IMG/VR virus record: IMGVR_UViG_3300045988_087758
From: a virus
Direction: 5' to 3' (one strand)
DNA length: 64,000 nucleotides
Part shown: one piece after another, positions 7,897 through 63,256 of the stretch
How positions within the stretch are numbered: position 1 is the stretch's first letter
Layout of the letters: every line of letters starts with the position of its first letter
The notes under the pieces: model-generated
Seen by the model: only the letters and a program-made list of their open reading frames with translations
What the model was told of the DNA's origin: nothing
The model's database searches: none
Program-made: the position numbers and the translations under genes

Positions 7897-8283
7897 TTAC
7901 TCAAGTCCGAGTGTCTTGCAATCAGCATCAACGATAGCCTTCAAACGTGCTCGCTCTACAAGGAACTCCTTATAAGCAGCAGTCTTGATAGCTATCTCTG
8001 TTTTATCAGTAGTGATGCCAAGCTGAATAGCATTATACTCATTGATGAGCTTCTGTTCCTGATTACCATCCCACTTATCAGCAATGACCGCTTCGGTAAT
8101 CTTATTAGACGTGAGAGGTTCCCATACAATCACTTCCTGGCATTCGTACTGAGTTTTTAATTCTATACCCGAAGGCTTCTCTGTTGATTCTGCCTTCACC
8201 GTCTTGATGTCGTAGTGATAACGGTGACTTCCGTTTCCTACTGCCTCCAATACTGAAGGCTCATTATCGTAAATTACTTTCAT
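7897..8283 (-). CDS. hypothetical protein translationally coupled to the DGR reverse transcriptase
   Basis: 128-aa ORF. Its ATG (8283-8281) overlaps the RT stop TGA (8282-8280) as an ATGA overlap. Confidence 0.45.
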   Translation of the reverse strand: MKVIYDNEPSVLEAVGNGSHRYHYDIKTVKAESTEKPSGIELKTQYECQEVIVWEPLTSNKITEAVIADKWDGNQEQKLINEYNAIQLGITTDKTEIAIKTAAYKEFLVERARLKAIVDADCKTLGLE

Positions 8284-9320
8284 ATTGCAATCTTTTTAAA
8301 GTTATAATTATGTATATAATGGAACGCACCTATCTTCTCTAACAGATGTCTGCTATCGCTATGAGCCGTCCATCCTAACCAAGGGCTTATCCTCATCTTC
8401 AGTGCATCCTCCTTGATTCCTTTCTTTCTTGCGGCTTTCATTTCCCTACATAGGTTCTGTTTCGTTCTCTTACGCATAAGCTTCTGCTTGCGGAAGAACT
8501 GATAGCCTACGTAGTCCAATGCACGACCGCTCTTGTCGTATCTATTCATACCGATTTTGAATATCTGCCAATTTCCTTTAATCTTTAGCTTCAATTCTCC
8601 TTCGAGCTTGCATTTGATGGCTTTGCGAACTTTATGCAATACTTCTTTATTTTCCGCAAAGAATGTTATATCATCGGCATATTCTGTACTCTCGACTTTC
8701 AGCACTTCGTTCACCCAGTGCATGAAGTAAGCAAGATAAAGATTAGCCAAATACTGACTTGAATAGTTACCTATCGGCAATCCATCTGTAGAATTTATAA
8801 TCTCGTCAAGGAGATTCAATACATCAGTGTCCTTTATCTTCTTTCGGATAATCTTCTTCATAACCTCATGGTCGATGCTAGGATAGTACTTTACGATGTC
8901 TATCTTTAAGCAATACAGAGGTCTGTCAATAGGATGTCTTCTTATAATCTCGCCAACCCTTCTTGCGCATCCTTCTATTCCTCTTCCCTTGATGCAGCTA
9001 TATGTATTGTACGTAAATACGCTGCGCCATATAGGTTCAAGGATATTCAGTATCGCATGATGAACGATTCTGTCGGGAAAGTATGGTAATCTGTATATCA
9101 CTCTCTCCTTCGGCTCATGAATGGTGAATACGTCATACTTTGATGTTCTGAACGCCTTATTTTCCAGTATCTCATGCAGCTTCAACAGATTATCCTCTCT
9201 ATTCTTATCGAACACTCGCACACCATAGGTATTTTTCTTTCCCTTCCTAGCCTTTTCATCAGCTAATCTGAGATTATCCATTGATATGATTTTCTCGTAG
9301 AGATAACCAATCCTTCTCAT
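8280..9320 (-). CDS. DGR-type reverse transcriptase
   Basis: 346-aa ORF with RT motifs: catalytic YADD (TEYADDITFF) and the DGR-typical LPIGNYSSQYLANLYL ([I/L]GxxxSQ) motif. It lies directly 3' of the template repeat. Confidence 0.9.
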   Translation of the reverse strand: MRRIGYLYEKIISMDNLRLADEKARKGKKNTYGVRVFDKNREDNLLKLHEILENKAFRTSKYDVFTIHEPKERVIYRLPYFPDRIVHHAILNILEPIWRSVFTYNTYSCIKGRGIEGCARRVGEIIRRHPIDRPLYCLKIDIVKYYPSIDHEVMKKIIRKKIKDTDVLNLLDEIINSTDGLPIGNYSSQYLANLYLAYFMHWVNEVLKVESTEYADDITFFAENKEVLHKVRKAIKCKLEGELKLKIKGNWQIFKIGMNRYDKSGRALDYVGYQFFRKQKLMRKRTKQNLCREMKAARKKGIKEDALKMRISPWLGWTAHSDSRHLLEKIGAFHYIHNYNFKKIAI

Positions 9321-9455
9321 CTTTTTTGCTATTTTGCTTCCTTACTCCGAGTCTTCGACTATTAGCGATATTGCTGATACCTACCAACACGTTTCTGAGT
9401 CCCTAAATTTTTCACCAAGAGGTGAGGTTATGATTCCGATATATAATATTTAACC

Positions 9456-9576
9456 TTAGAAGTATAGGTGAGAGGCGATATTCGCATTCGTGTCCGAGGG
9501 AACGTTAATCGAGTTCGAGTAAACGAAGCCGCAGTTCGAACCGTTATTCGCATTACCGCCAAAGAGAACGCCACGT
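9456..9576 (-). repeat. DGR template repeat (TR)
   Basis: 121 bp aligning base-for-base with 10072-10192 (offset 616). 22 mismatches, 19 at plus-strand T in TR (= A on the coding/minus strand). Read in the VR frame, TR carries 8 AAY codons. Confidence 0.85.
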
Positions 9577-9601
9577 TAGGAATCATCAACCTTAATATCT
9601 T

Positions 9602-9961
9602 TTATTCTACGAAATATCGGTTTCCGTTACCTCGCATTGTCACCTTGCAAGGAAAGGCATTCCGTTTCTTTATCTCCTGCAAGATATAGAGTATATCCTG
9701 TGAGCCTGTGAAGAACTTCATCGCTTCACTCTCTGGGTCTTCAAGATTTCGCTTCACAAGCACCAAGGTCTGACCTTTCGTACCTTTCTGCTTAGAGAAT
9801 CTTGTCGGAATATCCTCCATGAAATCAATCAGCCAAAATGATGTATTCACCAATTTGCTCTGACTTACTTCCTTGCAGTTGAATGAACGGCTGTTCTCAT
9901 TGCGAGGAATGTTCAAGAATGCAAGACTTCCATCGTCTTGCTTTGTGTTATCGTCTGCCAT
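9602..9961 (-). CDS. DGR accessory-position protein (between target gene and TR)
   Basis: 119-aa ORF in the slot normally held by Avd. I did not recognise its sequence as Avd-like. Confidence 0.5.
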   Translation of the reverse strand: MADDNTKQDDGSLAFLNIPRNENSRSFNCKEVSQSKLVNTSFWLIDFMEDIPTRFSKQKGTKGQTLVLVKRNLEDPESEAMKFFTGSQDILYILQEIKKRNAFPCKVTMRGNGNRYFVE

Positions 9962-9999
9962 ATCTCTATTATTTTAATGTTAAACCTAATTTTTAATCA

Positions 10000-10034
10000 C
10001 CCTATGCCGCCAATAAATGACGGGCGGCATAGGG
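10000..10034 (-). promoter_or_regulatory. perfect 12-bp stem hairpin just 3' of the target gene/VR
   Basis: ccctatgccgcc (10000-10011) pairs with ggcggcataggg (10023-10034), 11-nt loop. It sits 26 nt past the target-gene stop (10060-10062). Confidence 0.6.
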
Positions 10035-10059
10035 CGTGTGACGAGCCGTATCGCTTCGA

Positions 10060-11376
10060 TTATGCAGCAGGTAGGAAGCAAAGGCGAGAGGCGAAATGCG
10101 CATCCGATTCCGAGGGAACGATAAACGAGGACAAGAAAACGAAGCCGCAGCGCGAACCGTTAGGCGCAGAACCGCCAAAGAGAACGCCACGTAAAGTTGT
10201 ATCCGTAGGTATGTTTGTGTAATAGTAGTCACCATAATAGCTACTATCGCTACCGCCAACAGCCTTCGCTGTGATGTCACCATATTCGCCAAAGGTAATC
10301 TGTGTAACAAAACCTTCCGTCCTTGCTTCATTACCGACATAGGTATATCCGTCATATCCTGTATCAGAGAATTTCTTAGGGTCACGGCATATATATATCT
10401 TGCTGACACCGCTATCACCTGCCTGTATCTCAATGTTGATTCCATCAGTCCACTGCCATACATGAGCAAATGGGCACTCAATACCTCGGTATCTGTTAAC
10501 GCTTACCTTGCCGAGAGTAACACCATTCTTCGTACCAGTGTCGTAGGTAGCAACACCGCTTCGGTTGCCAAGGCTATCAGTAATACCGCAAAGAACAAAT
10601 GGGTTATTTCCATTGTATGTATACCATTCAGACCAATCTGCGCCAATAACACCGCTACCAAGACCGCCCTGATGATAACCTTCAGTAGTCAGAGCAGCAT
10701 TGTAATTTGTCTGACAAGACAACTGAGCATACTCAATAGCGAAAAGCCAATAGAGTTCTCTCTGAATGTCATATACATGACAATTCCATTCTACGCTACC
10801 AGTCTTTCTCGCTCTTGCCATATTGCGGAATCGTGTACGGCTGATATTGGATGATGCAAACACACTAGCGATAGAGCAGAGTTTGTTGTCCTTGACGTAG
10901 GCTTGATATGCACTCACGTAACGCTTCGGAACTTTACGGAAACCTGCCAAAGGTTCAAGGCTCATCCATGCTCTGCGCTTATTACCATCCGTTTCAAATT
11001 TTTCGTAATACTCTGGCAGCTCAACCATAACCTGTCCTCTGCTTCCGTCACGTGTGGCATTAGTCCAATCCTGTGGGTCGAGATAGTCAACCACATTACC
11101 ATCATCATCGAGCAAGCATCCCTTCATCAAAGTCTGCACTGGTAAGGTTCTGTGCATGCTCATGTTTCCGATTCTCGTTGCAGCCGTTGAACTTACCGTT
11201 ACATCGAACTCGATACCATAGGCATACACCTCTGGCGAAGTGATGGAAAGGTTAAGACTTCTTGATAAGTCTTTAATTTTCAATCTTCTTACAGCACCTC
11301 CAACCTCCGCAAATACGCTATCCGTCTGCTGTACGGATGCCACGGTATCTGCTGTTCCTAAATTCTTATTTGCCAT
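10060..11376 (-). CDS. DGR target protein, probable receptor-binding tail protein with C-terminal variable domain
   Basis: 438-aa ORF in the tail module. The VR covers its C-terminus. The invariant scaffold residues (GG..NG..CGF...RL) fit the C-type-lectin/FGE-like fold of DGR targets. Confidence 0.85.
   Translation of the reverse strand: MANKNLGTADTVASVQQTDSVFAEVGGAVRRLKIKDLSRSLNLSITSPEVYAYGIEFDVTVSSTAATRIGNMSMHRTLPVQTLMKGCLLDDDGNVVDYLDPQDWTNATRDGSRGQVMVELPEYYEKFETDGNKRRAWMSLEPLAGFRKVPKRYVSAYQAYVKDNKLCSIASVFASSNISRTRFRNMARARKTGSVEWNCHVYDIQRELYWLFAIEYAQLSCQTNYNAALTTEGYHQGGLGSGVIGADWSEWYTYNGNNPFVLCGITDSLGNRSGVATYDTGTKNGVTLGKVSVNRYRGIECPFAHVWQWTDGINIEIQAGDSGVSKIYICRDPKKFSDTGYDGYTYVGNEARTEGFVTQITFGEYGDITAKAVGGSDSSYYGDYYYTNIPTDTTLRGVLFGGSAPNGSRCGFVFLSSFIVPSESDAHFASRLCFLPAA
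10072..10192 (-). repeat. DGR variable repeat (VR)
   Basis: Partner of TR. Encodes the last ~40 codons of the 438-aa target (RGVLFGGSAPNGSRCGFVFLSSFIVPSESDAHFASRLCFL). Confidence 0.85.
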
Positions 11377-54078: not shown

Positions 54079-55275
54079 TTATTTGTAGTCTTTATTACAC
54101 TCTAAATCAGCATTCAGATAATCAATAACTTTTCTGTTCGCTTTATCAATCTTCGATGTATCGTACTCTACATAAACGCCAGTTATCGAATTATCCCAAA
54201 TAGAGTGTCCTAATGCCCTTCCGATAATCTCCATAGGTATTTCTATCTTTGCGGCAAACGTTGCCCACGTATGGCGATTCCAATAGCTTGTCAAGTCTGG
54301 CTCAATCGCATCATTTGTTCGGTCGTATCGTCTTCCGTCATATATCTTTCTTCCTAAAGAACGAAGACAATGATTACACTTAGTCGTGAACTGAGCATAC
54401 CCTGCCGAATTAGTAATCCTCATAAATGAGAATAATTCGTTGCTGCTGCTATTATTTTTGTATCTGTCGATAATCTCTTTAGCCTCTGGTTCTACCCTAA
54501 TATCGTACAATCTATTCGTCTTATTACGGAAGAATGATATGCGTCCGTCCTTATAGTCTTCCTTGGTAAGGTCGAGAATATCCGACAAGTTCATACCTAT
54601 CAGATAGAAACCAAGCATAAAGAAATCTCTGTATATACTATCGTGGGCATCGAGTTTAATATCTCGTATTGCTCGTAACTGCTCTACAGATAGATTTCTC
54701 TTGCGTGTTTTATCTTTCTTGAAAGCTGCCCTCTCAAATGGATAATTAGTAGTGAGCTTCTTTCTTCTTGCCCAATTAAAGACTGACTTCAGTTTATCAA
54801 TATCTCCAATGATACCATTGTTGCATCTGCCTTTTTCTTCCTCATGCTTATAGAACCCTTCTACCCATGAGAAATCTATTCCATCAAGTGTTGCATTCTC
54901 ATCATATACGGAAATATCCGTTATAAGATGTTTGTAGGCGGCAATAGTGCCAGCCTTATCCTTTGTGCCGATAAACTTCTCTATTGTGCTAATAATGGTG
55001 TTTCTGTTCCTTTTCTTGCCAACAATCAATTCTTTAAGATGTTCTTTGAGTTCGTCAACGCCTTCATTGCTATGCTCGTTGATGTAATCATCACACATCT
55101 TATATATCTGTGCAAGTCTGTTGGTCTTAGACTTTGCTGACTTGTCGGAGCGAGGAAAAACCATTCCGTCAAACTTCTCTGTTGTCTGTAATCCAGTTGA
55201 CAGATAGAACCTCTTGTACTTATGCGTGACAGATAAGTACACCTTAAAATCTCTGTTATCAATATATACTTTCAT
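54079..55275 (-). CDS. int: tyrosine recombinase / phage integrase
   Basis: 398-aa ORF. C-terminal WNRHTWATFAA...GRALGHS...TGVYVEY matches the R-H-R-Y catalytic-box pattern. Confidence 0.8.
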   Translation of the reverse strand: MKVYIDNRDFKVYLSVTHKYKRFYLSTGLQTTEKFDGMVFPRSDKSAKSKTNRLAQIYKMCDDYINEHSNEGVDELKEHLKELIVGKKRNRNTIISTIEKFIGTKDKAGTIAAYKHLITDISVYDENATLDGIDFSWVEGFYKHEEEKGRCNNGIIGDIDKLKSVFNWARRKKLTTNYPFERAAFKKDKTRKRNLSVEQLRAIRDIKLDAHDSIYRDFFMLGFYLIGMNLSDILDLTKEDYKDGRISFFRNKTNRLYDIRVEPEAKEIIDRYKNNSSSNELFSFMRITNSAGYAQFTTKCNHCLRSLGRKIYDGRRYDRTNDAIEPDLTSYWNRHTWATFAAKIEIPMEIIGRALGHSIWDNSITGVYVEYDTSKIDKANRKVIDYLNADLECNKDYK

Positions 55276-57587: not shown

Positions 57588-57661
57588 GGTTTCATAGCTC
57601 AGGTGGTTAGAGCGGTCGGCTGTTAACCGATAGGTCGTAGGTTCGAATCCTGCTGAAACCG
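57588..57661 (+). tRNA. tRNA-Asn (anticodon GTT)
   Basis: Hand-folded cloverleaf: ggtttca/tgaaacc acceptor, gctc-aggtggtta-gagc D arm, gtcgg-ctGTTaa-ccgat anticodon arm, gtagg-ttcgaat-cctgc T arm. 74 nt. Confidence 0.9.
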
Positions 57662-58096
57662 AAATTCTTTTAGAATCAGATTATCACTACAAGTGATGAA
57701 ACTGAAAGCTAGAGAAGAGTTCTTTGACATATTGACGCACAGAATATAGTATGCGTGGAAAAGAAGTAGCCGGAGAGCATCAATGGATGCCGTGACCTGG
57801 CGAAAAGGACGCACGACATACGAAAAACTAGTCAGTAACAGATATTACATAGACTATACCGATGAACTATGCTGAAACATCAGCACAAGCAAAGGGCATA
57901 ATATAGGTCTGTATCGTTTGCTATGTAGTATTCTAGTCGAAGTATGTATTATTGCCATCTTACGTGTAAGATATTTATAATATGTATGGAGTGTCATATG
58001 GAACGTCAATGCTAGCTGTATCGGGAATACGGAAACGATTAATATCGTGGCATTCACAAACGACAGAAAGCTCCATGGTTTTAGATACATAAAACA
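57662..58096 (+). ncRNA. 435-nt ORF-free hairpin-rich segment inside the tRNA array (candidate structured RNA)
   Basis: No plus-strand ORF. The minus-strand track ORFs overlap tRNAs. Local hairpins at 57681-57699, 57735-57756, 57777-57790, 57870-57885, 57955-57989 and 58035-58048. Confidence 0.3.
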
Positions 58097-58196
58097 GCAG
58101 GGTATGGTGTAAGTGGTATTCTTGCACACCTCGCACAATAGATGATACCTCTTTTTATCGTGTGAGATAGTGGCGGTTCGATTCCGCCTCCCTGCA
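58097..58196 (+). tRNA. tRNA-like gene with enlarged anticodon arm (identity undetermined)
   Basis: 100 nt. Acceptor gcagggt/tccctgc (one T-T mismatch), D stem gtgt/gcac, T arm ggcgg-ttcgatt-ccgcc. The helix ctcgcac/gtgtgag at the anticodon-stem position encloses 23 nt (58137-58159) instead of 7. Confidence 0.5.
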
Positions 58197-58344
58197 CAAA
58201 TTTTCAATTATTATTAGATAGTACAACGTTTATTACGAATATAGAAGTCTAGCTAACTCTGAACAGAGTTAAGTCAAAGAATGAGACTTAAACACTACTT
58301 AAAGTAGAGATTACTTCTCAATACTTTAATTAAATAACAACAAA

Positions 58345-58436
58345 GAGATATTTAGTGTAAACGGAAGCACGTCATACAACTTGAAGATACCGTTCTTATC
58401 GTATGGAAATGTTGGTTCGAATCCGGCAATATCTCC
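58345..58436 (+). tRNA. tRNA-like gene with enlarged anticodon arm (identity undetermined)
   Basis: About 91 nt. Acceptor agatatt/aatatct, D arm gtgt-aaacggaa-gcac, T arm gttgg-ttcgaat-ccggc. The helix tcatac/gtatgg encloses 23 nt (58378-58400). Confidence 0.5.
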
Positions 58437-58520
58437 AACAATTTTCTGAAGACTGAATTGAATATTCAGACTCTCATGTTTCTAGTATCTTTCTTATCTG
58501 TGAAGATAGGCTGCACAAAT

Positions 58521-58599
58521 CGCAGGTTAGAACAACTGGTAGTTTCGCTAAGTTAAAATATGAAACTTAGAGCCACAGGTTCGAGTCCTGTACCTGCAA
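58521..58599 (+). tRNA. tRNA-like gene with enlarged anticodon loop (identity undetermined)
   Basis: 79 nt. Acceptor (c)gcaggt/acctgc(a), D arm gaac-aactggta-gttt, T arm acagg-ttcgagt-cctgt. The helix ctaagt/acttag encloses 11 nt (58554-58564). Confidence 0.5.
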
Positions 58600-58687
58600 C
58601 ACTCATTTTTTTGGTTATAAGGTTATAAGGTAAAGTTAATTAGTTTTCTAAGTTTTAGCATCAAGTTCGTGAGAATATGATGCTTCT

Positions 58688-58758
58688 GGTTCTATGGTGT
58701 AACGGTAGCACAAGAGATTTTGGTTCTCTTAGAGATTGTTCGAGTCAGTCTAGAACTA
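58688..58758 (+). tRNA. tRNA-Gln (anticodon TTG)
   Basis: Hand-folded: ggttcta/tagaact acceptor, gtgt-aacggta-gcac D arm, agaga-ttTTGgt-tctct anticodon arm, gattg-ttcgagt-cagtc T arm. 71 nt. Confidence 0.85.
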
Positions 58759-58894
58759 CTGCATTTTTTTCATCTATGTACTTCTGTTTGTGAAAATAGT
58801 AGTGCTTTATTTGGAATCGGCACTTTTTAAGTGTTTTGTTTACTTAAATAATTTATTTTTTTTCTCAACTGCTTGCGACAAGTCGTTGAGTTTT

Positions 58895-58985
58895 GCCCTT
58901 AAAGCATGTAGGCATGCGCTACATACGCAGATTTAAAGCTCCGACCAGTATCGTAGAGAAGATGGTTCGATTCCATCTAAGGGCG
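58895..58985 (+). tRNA. tRNA-like gene with enlarged anticodon arm (identity undetermined)
   Basis: 91 nt. Perfect acceptor gccctta/taagggc, D arm gcat-gtaggc-atgc, T arm gatgg-ttcgatt-ccatc. The helices ctac/gtag and atac/gtat enclose 21 nt (58927-58947). Confidence 0.5.
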
Positions 58986-59025: not shown

Positions 59026-59069
59026 CCTTGGCGGTCAGATTATTAAGTTAGTCTGCCGCCAAGGTTTTT
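59026..59069 (+). terminator. rho-independent terminator closing the tRNA array
   Basis: A 13-bp stem, ccttggcgg(t)caga / tctgccgccaagg, followed by ttttt at 59065-59069. Confidence 0.75.
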
Positions 59070-59080
59070 ACGAAAAGAAC

Positions 59081-59341
59081 ATGAAGATTATATATAGTAT
59101 AAAGGTTCACAGAGACCACTTGAAAACGCTGCAAGGTCTGAAATGCTTGCAGTCTGTTGATGCCGGTGAAGATGGCAAGTCAATTACTTGTCAGTTCAAA
59201 GACAACAAGACTAGAGGTTGTCTGATTGCTCATACAAATGATTGGCTTGTTGAATTTGCGATAGGAGAATGGCAGAAGTTCGGTGATGCTGCTTACCAAC
59301 AACTAGTTTGGAATCCGAGCAACTTTTCTAAAGAATATTAG
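59081..59341 (+). CDS. hypothetical protein
   Basis: The track ORF 58997.. starts at a TTG and runs through the terminator hairpin. The ATG at 59081 (MKIIYSIKVHRD...) is the plausible start. Confidence 0.45.
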   Translation: MKIIYSIKVHRDHLKTLQGLKCLQSVDAGEDGKSITCQFKDNKTRGCLIAHTNDWLVEFAIGEWQKFGDAAYQQLVWNPSNFSKEY

Positions 59342-59343
59342 CT

Positions 59344-59820
59344 ATGGCTGCTGCTAGGGTTGTTCAACACAAGTACACATCGAAAGATGGTACTGAGTAC
59401 GATAGTAAAGAAGAATATCTGTATCACCAAATTCTTCTTGCTGATAAACGAGTTTCTTGTATTCATAGGCAAGTGAAACTCAATATATTCAAATCCCTTT
59501 ATATGCTTGTGCCGAAGCAACTCAAAACAAAGGTTCGGTACGATAAAAAACTGATGGTTAGCGGTCATAGCTATAAACCAGACTTCATATTTAGGGAAGA
59601 CGGAAAATTGATTGTATGTGATGTGAAATCTAAGTACACCCATTCTCTCAGAGAGTTCAGAATAACTGCCAAGGGGTGTATCAATAAGATTGTCGCACAC
59701 AACAAGAAACGTCATAATGGTGAGCCGTTTGTGGTTTTTCGTGAAGCTATCCATATCAAGAAGAATGAATGGAAGATAATCGACTACCCACCTGACGGAA
59801 ATAGTTATTGTGAGATTTAA
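59344..59820 (+). CDS. PD-(D/E)xK nuclease-like protein (DUF1064-like)
   Basis: 158-aa ORF. GHSYKPDFIFREDGKLIVCDVKSKYT contains a PD...D-x-K arrangement. Confidence 0.45.
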   Translation: MAAARVVQHKYTSKDGTEYDSKEEYLYHQILLADKRVSCIHRQVKLNIFKSLYMLVPKQLKTKVRYDKKLMVSGHSYKPDFIFREDGKLIVCDVKSKYTHSLREFRITAKGCINKIVAHNKKRHNGEPFVVFREAIHIKKNEWKIIDYPPDGNSYCEI

Positions 59821-60028: not shown

Positions 60029-63000
60029 ATGAATACAAAAGAATTAGACGGTTATCTGAAATTTCTCTCAGAAAAACAGACTGCCGTTCAAGAAAGCGGT
60101 TTTGATGTTGAGGATAGCGATTTGAATCCTCAACTATTTCCATTTCAAAAGTATTGCGTTAAACGAGCATTGAAAGTTGGTCGCTTCGCTATGTTTGAGG
60201 ACTGTGGATTGGGTAAAGAGCAGCCTTATTCAGAACCTGTACTAACACCTACTGGTTTTGTTGAAATGGGAAGTCTGAAAGTTGGTGATTATGTTATTTC
60301 CGCAAATGGAAATAAAACTAAAATCACAAACATATATGAGCAAGGTGCTAAAGATGTATATAAGGTGTCTTTTAGCGATGGAACATACGCAAGATGCGGA
60401 TTAAATCATTTATGGAATGTTAGAACCTTAAATGATTGTTCTAGAAATAATGACTATCGCACAATGGAATTGAAAGACATTATGGCTGATTATATTGGGG
60501 TCAGAAACGATGATAAAAGATACCCTAATAAACCACGTAATGTTTATAAATATTCCATTCCTGTGAACGGAAAAGTATCTTGGGATATTGCTGAAAATAT
60601 CACAATTCATCCTTATCTTCTTGGTGTTATACTCGGTGATGGAAGTATCTCTCAAAGAGGTGTAAAAATCTCAAAACCGAACAAGTCAATCCATGATAAA
60701 TTACTTACGTTAGACCTTCATGGCGATGTTGTTTCTGATTTTTACAAAGACGGAATGTCTTATTCCGTACATAACGAGGTAACAAATAAGACTAGTTGGA
60801 CGCAAAAAGAGTTAGAAAAACTAAACTTGATGGGGCACAAGTCTATCGACAAGTTTATTCCTTCTAACTATCTTTATGCGTCAGTAGAGAGTAGGGAAGA
60901 ATTACTGCAAGGTTTGATAGATACTGATGGACACTTGGTTAAGGGTGGAAGCGTTATTGAATATAGTACTGCATCCGAAAGAATTATGAATGACGTTTCT
61001 TTTCTTGCTCGTTCATTAGGTTACATGGTTAGGGTGAAAAAACGTATGTCTTACTATAATAAGAATGGGGAACGTTTTCCTAATTTCCGTGTTTATCTTT
61101 ACAAGAATTGTAGAAAGCTAAAGAATATTGTCAATATTGAGAAAGAAGGACAAGAGAAACAACGTTGTATCTATGTTGAAGATAGTTCTCACTTGTATCT
61201 AACTCGCGACTTTATTGTAACTCACAATACCGTTCAGCAATTAGAGTGGGCACAACAAGTGGTTAACCACATTAATAAACCTGTTCTTATTCTTGCACCA
61301 TTGGGTGTTATAGGTCAGACAATCAAAGAAGGAGTTCATTTCGGGTACAAAGTAACTGAGATTGCTCTTACGACATTCGACCAGGACTTGGATGCTGGTA
61401 TCTATATTACCAACTATGATAATATGGATAACATAGATGCTTATCTGTTTGGGGGGGTCGTTCTTGATGAGAGTTCTATATTGAAGAACTTTGCAGGTAA
61501 GACAAGAACCGCTCTTATTGAGGACTTCAAAAATACACCTTATAAGTTGTGTTGTACTGCAACGCCTTCTCCAAACGACACAACCGAGCTTTGCAATCAT
61601 GCAGAGTTCTTGAATATTATGACAAGAAACGAAATGCTTGCGATGTATTTTGTACATGATGGCGGTTCTACATCTGATTGGAGACTGAAAGGTCATGCAC
61701 AACAAGACTTTTGGGATTTCGTTTCTACTTGGGCAGTAATGCTCAGTAAACCATCTGATATTGGATTTAGCGATGATGGGTATAACCTTCCACCGATGAA
61801 TGTTATTGAAGATTACATCGTTACCGAGAAGAAAGATAACGGTGCTCTCTTTAATGATATGGCAGTGTCTGCAACAGATTTCCACAAAGAGCTTAGAAGA
61901 ACTATCAAACAACGTCTTGAAAGAGTTGCTGAGATTATTAATGGTTCTTCTGAGAATTGGATTATCTGGATTGGGCAAGATGAAGAAGGCAAGGTTCTTC
62001 GTGAATTGATTCCCGATGCAGTTGAGGTTAAGGGTAGTGACAACAAACAATACAAGAAAGATAAGTTGCTAGGATTTGCCAATAACGAGTTCAGAGTGCT
62101 TATCACTAAGTTGAAGATTGCATCATTCGGTCTTAACTATCAGAACTGCCGTAATCAGATGTTTGCTTCACTTGATTTTTCATTTGAAGCTACCTATCAA
62201 GGTATCAGACGTTCATATCGTTTCGGTCAGAAAGATGAGGTAAATATCCACATCATTACTCTTGATACGATGCAGAACGTGAAATCATCATTCGAGGAAA
62301 AGCAAAAGCAATTCCTCGAAATGCAGAAGTCTATGACCGAAGCTATGTGTCGTAACATCAATAATCAGATAAAGTTAAAGAAGATGGAAGTTGATAATAA
62401 GTATCAATCAAAAAACTGTGACATTCGCCTAGGCGATTGTGTGCAGCTCATTCAGAATGTTCCCGATGAGAGTATTGGATTCTCTATTTTCTCTCCACCA
62501 TTTGCGGAACTTTACACTTATTCCGATAAGTTGGAAGATATGGGTAACTCAAAGGACTATAAGGAGTTCTTTACTGCCTTCAAATATCTTGTTAAAGAAC
62601 TATACAGAGTTCTTTGGAGCGGTCGTAACGTTGCCGTACATTGTATGGACTTGCCTATCCAAAAAGGTAAGGAAGGATATATTGGTCTTCGTGACTTCTC
62701 AGGAATGATTCTTGAAGCATTCCAAGAAGTAGGTTTTATTTATCATTCAAGAGTAACTATTTGGAAGAACCCAGTGACGGAAATGCAGAGAACAAAGGCA
62801 CTCGGTCTTCTTCATAAGCAAGTAAAGAAAGATGCGGCTATGAGTCGTGTCGGCATCCCTGACTATCTTATGGTATTCCGCAAGGAAGGAGAACATGAAC
62901 ACCCAGTTCATTGTGATATATCTGTTGATACTTGGCAAAAGTACGCTTCGCCAGTGTGGATGGATATTGATTACTCTAAAACACTTAATGGTATTAAGGG

Positions 63001-63256
63001 GCGTGACGAGAATGACGAGAAGCATATCTGTCCATTACAACTTGAAACAATCGAGCGAGCAATAACTCTTTGGAGTAACAAGGGTGATAAGGTTCTTACA
63101 CCATTCCTTGGAATCGGTTCTGAGGTGTATCAGTCAATTAAGATGGGTCGCTTTGGTGTTGGCTTTGAATTAAAGGATAGTTACTTTAATGAAGCTGTAA
63201 AGAATTGCAAAGCTGCCGAGGCTGATACAAATGCGCCTACGTTGTTCGATATGTAG
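60029..63256 (+). CDS. SNF2/DEAD-like helicase fused to a C-terminal N6/N4 DNA methyltransferase, interrupted by an intein
   Basis: 1075-aa ORF. Walker A GLGK|...|T is split. VVLDESS (DExx box), CCTATPSPND (motif III). MTase motif IV IFSPPFAELY, and FLGIGSE (FxGxG) near the C-terminus, giving a beta-class motif order. Confidence 0.8.
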   Translation: MNTKELDGYLKFLSEKQTAVQESGFDVEDSDLNPQLFPFQKYCVKRALKVGRFAMFEDCGLGKEQPYSEPVLTPTGFVEMGSLKVGDYVISANGNKTKITNIYEQGAKDVYKVSFSDGTYARCGLNHLWNVRTLNDCSRNNDYRTMELKDIMADYIGVRNDDKRYPNKPRNVYKYSIPVNGKVSWDIAENITIHPYLLGVILGDGSISQRGVKISKPNKSIHDKLLTLDLHGDVVSDFYKDGMSYSVHNEVTNKTSWTQKELEKLNLMGHKSIDKFIPSNYLYASVESREELLQGLIDTDGHLVKGGSVIEYSTASERIMNDVSFLARSLGYMVRVKKRMSYYNKNGERFPNFRVYLYKNCRKLKNIVNIEKEGQEKQRCIYVEDSSHLYLTRDFIVTHNTVQQLEWAQQVVNHINKPVLILAPLGVIGQTIKEGVHFGYKVTEIALTTFDQDLDAGIYITNYDNMDNIDAYLFGGVVLDESSILKNFAGKTRTALIEDFKNTPYKLCCTATPSPNDTTELCNHAEFLNIMTRNEMLAMYFVHDGGSTSDWRLKGHAQQDFWDFVSTWAVMLSKPSDIGFSDDGYNLPPMNVIEDYIVTEKKDNGALFNDMAVSATDFHKELRRTIKQRLERVAEIINGSSENWIIWIGQDEEGKVLRELIPDAVEVKGSDNKQYKKDKLLGFANNEFRVLITKLKIASFGLNYQNCRNQMFASLDFSFEATYQGIRRSYRFGQKDEVNIHIITLDTMQNVKSSFEEKQKQFLEMQKSMTEAMCRNINNQIKLKKMEVDNKYQSKNCDIRLGDCVQLIQNVPDESIGFSIFSPPFAELYTYSDKLEDMGNSKDYKEFFTAFKYLVKELYRVLWSGRNVAVHCMDLPIQKGKEGYIGLRDFSGMILEAFQEVGFIYHSRVTIWKNPVTEMQRTKALGLLHKQVKKDAAMSRVGIPDYLMVFRKEGEHEHPVHCDISVDTWQKYASPVWMDIDYSKTLNGIKGRDENDEKHICPLQLETIERAITLWSNKGDKVLTPFLGIGSEVYQSIKMGRFGVGFELKDSYFNEAVKNCKAAEADTNAPTLFDM
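60218..61228 (+). mobile_element. intein with LAGLIDADG homing-endonuclease domain (aa 64-400 of the host ORF)
   Basis: It sits between GLGK and T of the P-loop. Hint block B-like ARCGLNHLW. Two LAGLIDADG motifs (LLGVILGDGSI, LLQGLIDTDGH). C-terminal CIYVEDSSHLYLTRDFIVTHN followed by the +1 Thr. The first residue is Glu, not Cys/Ser. Confidence 0.75.

Follow-up and report, generated by a model that had tools for sequence, protein, structure and literature searches.

Candidate non-decoding tRNA mimics with replaced anticodon arms in a phage tRNA array

Introduction

What purpose can a tRNA-shaped gene serve if it has no usable anticodon loop? The question is raised by an array of six tRNA-shaped genes on the plus strand of the IMG/VR virus record IMGVR_UViG_3300045988_087758, of which a stretch of 64,000 nucleotides (the window) is analysed here. 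The window belongs to a temperate phage or prophage with a G+C content of about 40%, and the array lies between an excisionase-like gene and replication genes. Two of the six genes are canonical, namely tRNA-Asn(GTT), which lies upstream of the range 58097-58985 given in an initial annotation of this DNA, and tRNA-Gln(TTG); that annotation had called both normal, and ARAGORN and Rfam agree. The other four, named c1, c2, c3 and c4, have intact acceptor, D and T arms, and the helix at the site of the anticodon stem encloses 23, 23, 9-11 and 21 nt respectively. The initial annotation had found the same helices and counted 11 nt in c3; its coordinates and helices are correct, with the c3 stem open to being read as 6 or 7 bp, enclosing 11 or 9 nt.

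The basis of the whole analysis is comparative sequence evidence. The cloverleaves of these genes are kept by compensatory substitutions, and their anticodon arms are replaced, duplicated or deleted while the body stays. The replacement arms of c1, c2 and c4 carry a short, nearly invariant module. We propose, with a probability of roughly 55%, that c1 to c4 are non-decoding tRNA mimics, that is, natural "tRNA-scaffold" RNAs in which the arm module binds a specific partner.

Results

Detection and folding of the four genes

ARAGORN in its standard mode and Rfam at its gathering threshold (29 bits for the tRNA model, RF00005) report two tRNAs only, Asn and Gln. With permissive filters the same Rfam model also aligns c2 (58346-58435, 38.9 bits) and c3 (58521-58599, 37.6 bits), each with a big insertion in the anticodon loop, which in c2 is 24 nt long. 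In sensitive mode c1 gives a weak match to tRNA-Sec only (21 bits), and c4 gives no tRNA match even then. For ARAGORN to find c1 to c4, introns have to be permitted or the threshold reduced, and the anticodons that it then assigns, Ala(cgc), Ile(tat), Ser(aga) and Arg(acg), are implausible and arbitrary.

The four genes nevertheless contain the parts of a canonical cloverleaf, with a 7-bp acceptor, a D arm, and a T arm with a GTTCRA-type loop, and the single-sequence minimum free energy (MFE) folds of c1 (z = -4.6), c2 and c4 (z = -2.3) are all cloverleaves with an enlarged anticodon arm. What c1 to c4 lack is a 5-bp stem capped by a 7-nt loop that carries U33, the anticodon and R37; in none of them does a 7-nt anticodon loop lie at the usual distance from the elbow. 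The loops are of 9-25 nt, or else the hairpin is displaced by 4-5 bp and accompanied by a bulge, neither of which is a decoding geometry. The earlier failure to place a U33-NNN-R37 anticodon in these genes is thus upheld, ARAGORN in standard mode calling none. With an anticodon geometry as unusable as this, c1 to c4 should be unable to read codons.

Rfam 15 holds no family that matches c1 to c4. Among GenBank phages the region is without a close relative and gives generic tRNA-Asn matches only, and a full-text search of the literature returned no description of genes of this kind.

Distribution among relatives

Relatives are found in more than 100 IMG/VR contigs from several phage clades, and in one Lachnospira metagenome-assembled genome (MAG). 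The IMG/VR set was built from 51 loci reached by way of the adjacent DUF1064 protein, and was widened by two pattern scans and a covariance model (loci are cited below as L with a number). One large sample and closely related phages supply most of the contigs, so that the counts overstate the number of independent events. All four elements are found again in relatives, at 80-100% identity. The initial annotation had made its case depend beforehand on the inserts being conserved among related phages, and the inserts do recur across many contigs. Conservation in many contigs, together with compensatory changes in every stem of the cloverleaf, exceeds what chance would give.

The species-genome collection yields a single genuine match, on a contig from a MAG with the label uncultured Lachnospira sp., where c1 and c2 are accompanied by the integrase and helicase known from the window. 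A gut bacterium of the Lachnospiraceae is therefore the probable host.

The c2 family and its paralogue c1

The c2 family, 40 distinct sequences aligned to the covariance model R1, provides the clearest view of how these genes evolve. Standard pairs make up 95.8% of the pair cells, and 18 of the 27 pairs show double-sided changes. Covarying pairs are found in the acceptor (6 of 8), the anticodon stem (6 of 6) and the T stem (5 of 5), and none of 500 column shuffles equals the observed values. These shuffles ignore relatedness, a weakness mitigated by the presence of several divergent lineages and by a second control, in which sliding the partners by 1-3 columns lowers the pairing to 26-52%. 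A separate MAFFT alignment gives the same picture.

The stems change, whereas the content of the arm is close to fixed. It consists of a 5' bulge led by AAY, 4-5 variable purine-rich nucleotides, and then GAUACC-NN-UCUUAUC, in which GAUACC and UCUUAUC are invariant or nearly so and the central NN is GU, AU, UU, UA, GA, AA or UG. The hairpin loop has 8 nt in two c2 lineages and in c1. The initial annotation had described a common architecture for c1 and c2, with a 5' bulge of 7-8 nt, a GATA/TATC helix and a loop of 7-8 nt, and this description is correct. The 4-bp GAUA/UAUC helix shows zero variation in the c2 family, so that covariation can neither prove nor disprove its pairing. A pseudoknot between the bulge and the hairpin loop was considered and set aside: complementary triplets do recur, in shifting registers, and their pairing is incompatible with the GAUA/UAUC helix, so that it would be an alternative conformer at most. 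A resemblance of the modules to the 16S 790 loop or to the anti-Shine-Dalgarno sequence was likewise rejected, being short and inconsistent between c1 and c2.

The body of c2 has a distinctive end. The G-1:C73 pair is present in all 40 sequences of the family and A1:U72 in 39 of them, and C73-CCA is encoded in the gene in some members; G-1:C73 is not found in c1, c3 or c4. In bacteria this pair is the main identity element recognised by histidyl-tRNA synthetase (HisRS). The D arm is of the kind found in phage tRNA-His, Gln and Trp. Because of these two features, c2 is best seen as a body of the tRNA-His type whose anticodon arm was swapped. No GTG occurs in the arm of any member of the family. 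Distant members have degenerate T loops (TTCGTTT and TCCGAAA).

The relatives of c1 are fewer, with 8-11 distinct variants at 95-100% identity. Its score of about 50 bits against R1, the same module, a longer D arm and A73 point to c1 being a diverged paralogue of c2.

The c4 family

The c4 RNAs fall into three lineages: the clade of the window, which has 22 variants; L158, L231 and L233; and L156. The acceptor, anticodon and T stems are wholly different in sequence among the three, with complementarity kept. What all of them have in common is the motif GAUUU(U)AAU(U)G(C)UCCGACC, the D arm, and an AGAGAA variable loop; the 17-nt motif retained by the family is GAUUUAAUGCUCCGACC. L158 has an additional hairpin within the arm, and the c4-type RNA of L156 (at about 360-490) has two tandem copies of GAUUU(U)AAU..UCC(G/U)ACC in one arm. 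A short constant motif doubled on a conserved frame is what would be expected of a displayed binding site. The c4 copy in L138 has a scrambled 5' half. The c2 and c4 modules have no further copies elsewhere in the 64-kb window.

The initial annotation had also remarked that three of the inserts have tatcgt at their 3' junction. For c4 this is coincidental, since most of its relatives have TATGT and the extra C is a bulge specific to the window variant.

Just upstream of c4, at 58864-58894 on the plus strand, there is a hairpin CTCAAC-TGCTTGCGACAAGTC-GTTGAG followed by TTTT, whose inner CTTGCGACAAG is kept in L158. Within the array this hairpin may act as a terminator or as a signal for processing.

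c3 and other variants of the arm

The c3 variant is seen in the window and in only four of the fetched loci (L139, L169, L003 and L234). Most relatives have at this position a normal 73-nt tRNA-Met with the loop TTCATGT, and the function of c3 is the least secure among the four elements.

Other arrays hold further versions of the arm. The positional homologue of c2 in L162 (1848-1918) and L168 (3046-3116) keeps G-1:C73 and has no anticodon, its anticodon arm being a 6-bp stem with a UUUU tetraloop. In L157 (3593-3679), the c2-type body of the close relative L156 carries an unrelated 24-nt insert, GCGAATACATGAGGGTAAGTCGCA, and the two loci form a natural module-swap contrast. In L163 the loop of a type-II-like gene is 16 nt long. 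The arrays of the L170 clade have more tRNA-shaped genes with anticodon loops of 3-6 nt or odd T loops, as in L175 4800-4872, L182 5616-5685, L170 1091-1165 and L193 6272-6344, where the T loops are TGCGAAT or TTTGAAT, not TTCRANN.

A scan of IMG/VR anchored on the D arm gave 56 distinct tRNA-shaped matches from newly fetched loci. ARAGORN missed 12 of these and called a 13th merely as an undetermined tRNA. The ARAGORN-negative matches, among them L376, L380, L381, L406, L426, L434, L443 and L444, have the D arm GGTGTAA..GGWAGCAC and anticodon arms that are shortened or enlarged, enclosing from 5 to about 45 nt. Non-canonical arms thus extend beyond this phage, and the scan suggests that they are common in phage tRNA arrays.

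Transcription signals, neighbours and phage context

The coordinates of the array and of its neighbours are collected in Table 1.

Table 1. Features of the tRNA array and its surroundings, in window coordinates.
Feature	Position	Strand	Description	Support
c1, tRNA-like RNA	58097..58196	+	Acceptor GCAGGGT/TCCCTGC with U7.U66 mismatch, A73; extended 7-bp D arm; anticodon stem CTCGCAC/GTGTGAG (58130-58136/58160-58166) enclosing 58137-58159, made up of 5' bulge AATAGAT (58137-58143), hairpin GATA (58144-58147), 8-nt loop CCTCTTTT (58148-58155) and TATC (58156-58159); T arm GGCGG-TTCGATT-CCGCC	Sequence; model R1 49.7 bits
c2, putative histidine-type tRNA-like RNA	58345..58435	+	Extra pair G-1 (58345):C73 (58435); acceptor AGATATT/AATATCT; D arm GTGT-AAACGGAA-GCAC; anticodon stem TCATAC (58372-58377)/GTATGG (58401-58406) enclosing 58378-58400, made up of 5' bulge AACTTGAA (58378-58385), hairpin GATA (58386-58389), loop CCGTTCT (58390-58396) and TATC (58397-58400); T arm GTTGG-TTCGAAT-CCGGC	Rfam tRNA 38.9 bits; model R1 107 bits
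c3, tRNA-Met(CAT) derivative	58521..58599	+	Mismatch C1xA72; 7-bp stem CTAAGTT/AACTTAG (58548-58554/58564-58570) with 9-nt loop AAAATATGA	Rfam tRNA 37.6 bits
c4, tRNA-like RNA	58895..58985	+	Acceptor GCCCTTA/TAAGGGC, G73; anticodon stem CTACATAC (58919-58926)/GTAT(C)GTAG (58948-58956) enclosing 58927-58947, a 21-nt module with conserved motif GATTTAAAGCTCCGACC at 58930-58946; T arm GATGG-TTCGATT-CCATC	Sequence
tRNA-Asn(GTT)	57588..57661	+	Canonical; opens the array	ARAGORN; Rfam tRNA 70.3 bits
tRNA-Gln(TTG)	58688..58759	+	Canonical	ARAGORN; Rfam 55.3 bits
Promoter-like site	57952..57981	+	Sigma-70-like, TTGCCA-18-TATAAT	Consensus scan, 11/12 matches
Intrinsic-terminator-like hairpin	59026..59069	+	CCTTGGCGGTCAGA...TCTGCCGCCAAGG then TTTTT	Read from sequence
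86-aa open reading frame (ORF)	59081-59341	+	No assigned family	tblastn, 130 loci, all clades
DUF1064 PD-(D/E)XK nuclease	59344-59820	+		Pfam; tblastn, 123 loci, all clades
Integrase	54079-55275	-		

The promoter-like site sits about 110 nt upstream of c1 and is the putative start of a transcription unit running from c1 to c4. The terminator-like hairpin closes the array ahead of the 86-aa ORF; the terminator scan missed it because its loop is 12 nt long, and in L158 its stem is preserved by compensatory changes (GGTGATAGG/CCTACACC). The two signals together are consistent with a dedicated non-coding transcription unit.

Between tRNA-Asn and c1, at 57715-57835 on the plus strand, lies the most widely conserved stretch of the array region, found in about 112 loci of all clades at 71-93% identity. 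It contains a promoter-like site TTGACA-17-TAGTAT and then a structured RNA, about 85 nt long and built of three nested helices, for which compensatory changes are seen in 7 of 9 predicted pairs and no Rfam match was obtained. Pairing of the c1 to c4 modules with this neighbouring conserved RNA was considered and is not convincing.

The 86-aa ORF and the DUF1064 gene adjoin the tRNA-like array in every clade examined. The DUF1064 protein is annotated in PHROG as a Holliday-junction resolvase and has a PD...D-V-K motif in its translation; no match to a solved structure or in NCBIfam was found. The 86-aa ORF has no match in Pfam, PHROG or NCBIfam, its 17 homologues are unannotated, and its AlphaFold model is poor, with a pLDDT of 56 that is too low for a fold search. 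It was considered as an RNA-binding partner of the modules and rejected, being without a family or a good model and present also where the module is absent.

Annotation of the window proteins covered the 24 larger ones, against Pfam, PHROGs and NCBIfam. Besides the DUF1064 nuclease, the profile scans identify an Ant/Rha anti-repressor, an excisionase-like helix-turn-helix protein, a portal protein, a large terminase and a reverse transcriptase, and the phage encodes a serine recombinase in addition to the integrase. The reverse transcriptase gene (8280-9320) is part of a diversity-generating retroelement at 8280-11376 on the minus strand, with an RNA at 9322-9429 (Rfam RT-17, 51.7 bits) and a 118-nt template repeat at 9459-9576 that is 83% identical to the variable repeat at 10075-10192, the latter being the 3' end of a 438-aa gene (10060-11376). 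It is worth adding that a 1075-aa SNF2 helicase fused to an N6/N4 DNA methylase (60029-63256, plus strand) is split at about residues 277-348 by an intein-like LAGLIDADG homing-endonuclease segment. Outside the phage, a metagenome contig (L454, 1900-2200) has a 72-nt tandem repeat in which GATACCACTCTTATC occurs by coincidence; it resembles an iteron region, and is neither a CRISPR array nor related to tRNA.

Discussion

Proposed function

If c1 to c4 are indeed tRNA mimics, one transcript would begin at the promoter-like site (57952) and end at the terminator-like hairpin (59026-59069), and host RNase P and RNase Z would excise the RNAs from this transcript and the CCA-adding enzyme would complete their 3' ends. 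Maturation of this kind is probable because the elements that these enzymes recognise are all in the intact upper half. The matured RNAs would then accumulate as stable tRNA-like molecules excluded from decoding. Their tRNA body would provide processing, stability and perhaps charging, with c2 probably being recognised by HisRS, and the module in the anticodon arm would bind a specific partner, which could be of the host or the phage, and protein or RNA. The most plausible role would be to titrate or block a factor that handles tRNA, for example a tRNA-targeting defence nuclease. Many defence systems cut tRNA anticodon arms (PMC11464382, PMC11555353, PMC12445682). Among the possibilities raised by the initial annotation was that of tRNA mimics or decoys against host anticodon nucleases; the reading that we favour goes in the direction of this suggestion.

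Several points weigh against the proposal. The decoy role is an analogy with conflicts between phages and tRNA nucleases. No partner was found when we considered copies of the modules in the window, CRISPR-like arrays, ToxI/CptI and the two syntenic proteins, and of these proteins neither the 86-aa ORF nor DUF1064 gives a lead to a partner, DUF1064 looking like a DNA nuclease. The GAUA/UAUC pairing in the c2 family is unproven by covariation, and RNAfold offers alternative pairings of the purine-rich end of the bulge with the UCU of the loop. The c3 gene may be a recent, possibly non-functional derivative of tRNA-Met. Finally, the conservation of the module might in principle reflect a site at the DNA level.

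Alternative explanations

An explanation that overlaps with ours, and differs from it in which half of the molecule is the effector, is that the tRNA body itself acts as a decoy or competitive inhibitor of a factor that recognises the acceptor, T and D regions, such as a tRNA-acting defence nuclease or toxin, or HisRS, and that the arm was altered only to bar the RNA from translation. The body is certainly well kept in c2, where G-1:C73 and A1:U72 are essentially invariant; it occurs with a bare UUUU tetraloop in L162 and L168 and with a different insert in L157, and related arrays have arrived at many solutions for the arm, both enlarged and shrunken. A purely disabling change, however, would not hold 15-19 nt invariant across clades and would not duplicate the c4 motif, and a catalytic enzyme is hard to titrate with a decoy. 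We regard this as a real but distinctly weaker candidate. A similarly tentative place can be given to a more specific reading of the c2 family, in which it would be a histidine-chargeable, non-decoding mimic. The synthetase would ignore the anticodon, by analogy with transfer-messenger RNA (tmRNA), and the invariant module would attract a protein partner; this would serve either to disarm an immune nuclease that targets tRNA or to gain access to a tRNA-dependent pathway with no codon being needed. More broadly, phages would be using tRNA bodies routinely as natural scaffolds on which small effector RNAs are expressed.

Explanations in which the extra sequence is an artefact, is removed or is decaying fare worse. 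The c1 to c4 genes are not type-II tRNAs that had been mis-folded, a reading that the initial annotation had named as one that would refute its case: the extra nucleotides are nested inside the covarying anticodon stem, that is in the anticodon arm and not in the variable arm, and the anticodon loop is non-standard. Where ARAGORN reads an L170-type c2 as tRNA-Ser(act), 2 of the 5 stem pairs are mismatched and the variable arm is unpaired. The initial annotation had also suggested short intervening sequences, which in a pre-tRNA would be cut out by a protein activity, of the bulge-helix-loop kind or some other, with a ligase such as RtcB joining the exons. The place of the insert in the anticodon arm would suit this, as would the 4-bp central helix of c1 and c2, which is like that of the archaeal bulge-helix-bulge and is flanked by a bulge and a loop, the tRNAs that ARAGORN reports in intron mode, and the PD-(D/E)XK-fold protein (DUF1064) that adjoins the array in all clades. 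Against this, the bulge is 7-8 nt instead of the 3 required, c3 and c4 have no bulge-helix-bulge motif, and cleavage with that geometry would leave a loop of about 12 nt. Worked through by hand, no excision of any length yields U33 together with R37; a 7-nt loop arises in one way only, as CUUAUCG, which has C37, is available only in part of the family and would give different bodies one and the same UAU anticodon, and the His-type body of c2 has no GUG anywhere in its arm. Since no excision gives a 7-nt loop with U33 and R37 or a His anticodon, the intron reading is disfavoured. The insert is, moreover, more conserved than the exons, the opposite of what structure-specific excision leads one to expect, and the arm also occurs with a tetraloop, with a different insert, with its motif doubled or with a hairpin added. 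The scans of the 24 larger window proteins brought up no EndA, RtcB or Rnl, and DUF1064 was rejected as an RNA splicing endonuclease, retaining as it does the metal-dependent PD...D-V-K motif of a DNA nuclease. A group I intron would have a P1-P9 catalytic core and a length of at least about 200 nt, far above the 9-25 nt of the inserts, and Rfam gave no intron match. Splicing is thus improbable in our judgement. Still a little less probable is that these are degenerating, functionless tRNA pseudogenes. Signs of decay can be pointed to, in c3 as a rare variant of a normal tRNA-Met, in the scrambled 5' half of the L138 copy of c4, and in the degenerate T loops of distant c2 members. Nevertheless all four stems are held by compensatory changes, the elements persist across several phage clades, and the region of the module, where decay would be expected to be quickest, is better conserved than any other. 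The initial annotation had listed degenerate genes among its possibilities and had itself argued that the conserved arms speak against simple decay; the argument holds, and covariation and the invariance of the module oppose degeneration for c1, c2 and c4, in which the evidence for selection is strong. Equally doubtful is that the module works at the DNA level, for instance as an operator, an iteron or the core of a recombinase site, or that its RNA imitates a CRISPR repeat or a type III antitoxin. With its short inverted halves around a 7-bp spacer, GATA-N7-TATC does resemble the core of a tyrosine recombinase, and the phage encodes both an integrase and a serine recombinase; RNA mimics acting against CRISPR or toxins are known in phages. 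The array, though, lies inside the phage in the viral contigs and in the contig of the Lachnospira MAG alike, the RNA stems on either side of the module covary, and no copies of the module are found in the rest of the window. When the metagenome collection was scanned for tandem copies at CRISPR spacing, only the unrelated 72-nt tandem repeat described above came up, and the similarity to ToxI/CptI consists of coincidences of 6-7 nt only.

Comparison with known systems

The closest functional analogues of c1 to c4 would be the engineered tRNA scaffold and tmRNA. The scaffold, reportedly introduced by Ponchon and Dardel in 2007 for recombinant RNA, also has a foreign module in the position of the anticodon and intact arms that lead to processing by RNase P/Z and to nuclease resistance. 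It is man-made, whereas c1 to c4 are natural and conserved in phages. In tmRNA (SsrA), too, a tRNA-like upper half lacks an anticodon and a functional insertion replaces the anticodon arm, and the RNA is charged by a synthetase that ignores the anticodon. Unlike tmRNA, however, c1 to c4 have no G3:U70, pseudoknots or tag ORF, and they retain the D arm and the anticodon stem; their insert is of 9-25 nt, and the identity set would be of the His type rather than the Ala type. Neither ARAGORN nor Rfam found a tmRNA, and position 3:70 is A:U in c1 and A:T in c2.

Other tRNA-shaped RNAs with regulatory or scaffold roles outside translation offer a looser parallel. The YrlA Y-RNA-like RNAs are tRNA mimics with their termini in the Ro-binding stem, not in the acceptor stem. 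The tRNA-Other of B. cereus is a tRNA-shaped, non-translational pseudo-tRNA, which is chromosomal and without an enlarged arm module (PMC3399842). No Rfam match to RNAs of either kind was found for c1 to c4. Phage tRNAs that counter nucleases, such as T5 tRNA-Lys against PARIS (PMC11464382) and those acting against retron effectors (PMC11555353), resemble the present genes in belonging to phage arrays with changed anticodon arms and in their conflict with tRNA-cleaving defences, but those tRNAs keep a 7-nt loop, decode, and replace the cleaved host tRNA, which c1 to c4 should be unable to do. Pre-tRNAs of archaea and eukaryotes with a bulge-helix-bulge or bulge-helix-loop likewise have extra sequence in the anticodon arm and a central helix of 4 bp, while the size of the bulge, its position and the predicted product misfit c1 to c4. 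Lastly, c2 has the extra G-1 paired with C73 and the D-arm type of a canonical tRNA-His, and differs from it in having A1:U72 instead of G1:C72, no GUG and no 7-nt loop.

Implications

The tRNA genes of phages are currently read either as helpers in codon usage or as replacements for host tRNAs cut by defence systems. A covarying family that combines a tRNA body with an invariant module in the arm points to a third use, in which the tRNA shape carries a small effector RNA or decoy. Such genes escape standard tools or are labelled pseudogenes by them, and the class may therefore be widespread; in the D-arm-anchored IMG/VR sample, about one fifth of the distinct tRNA-shaped matches had non-canonical arms. 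Should the partner be a tRNA-directed immune enzyme, this would be a new RNA-based form of counter-defence, and if tRNA bodies are indeed used as scaffolds, a class of non-coding RNA would be hidden among the tRNAs annotated as "pseudo" or "undetermined".

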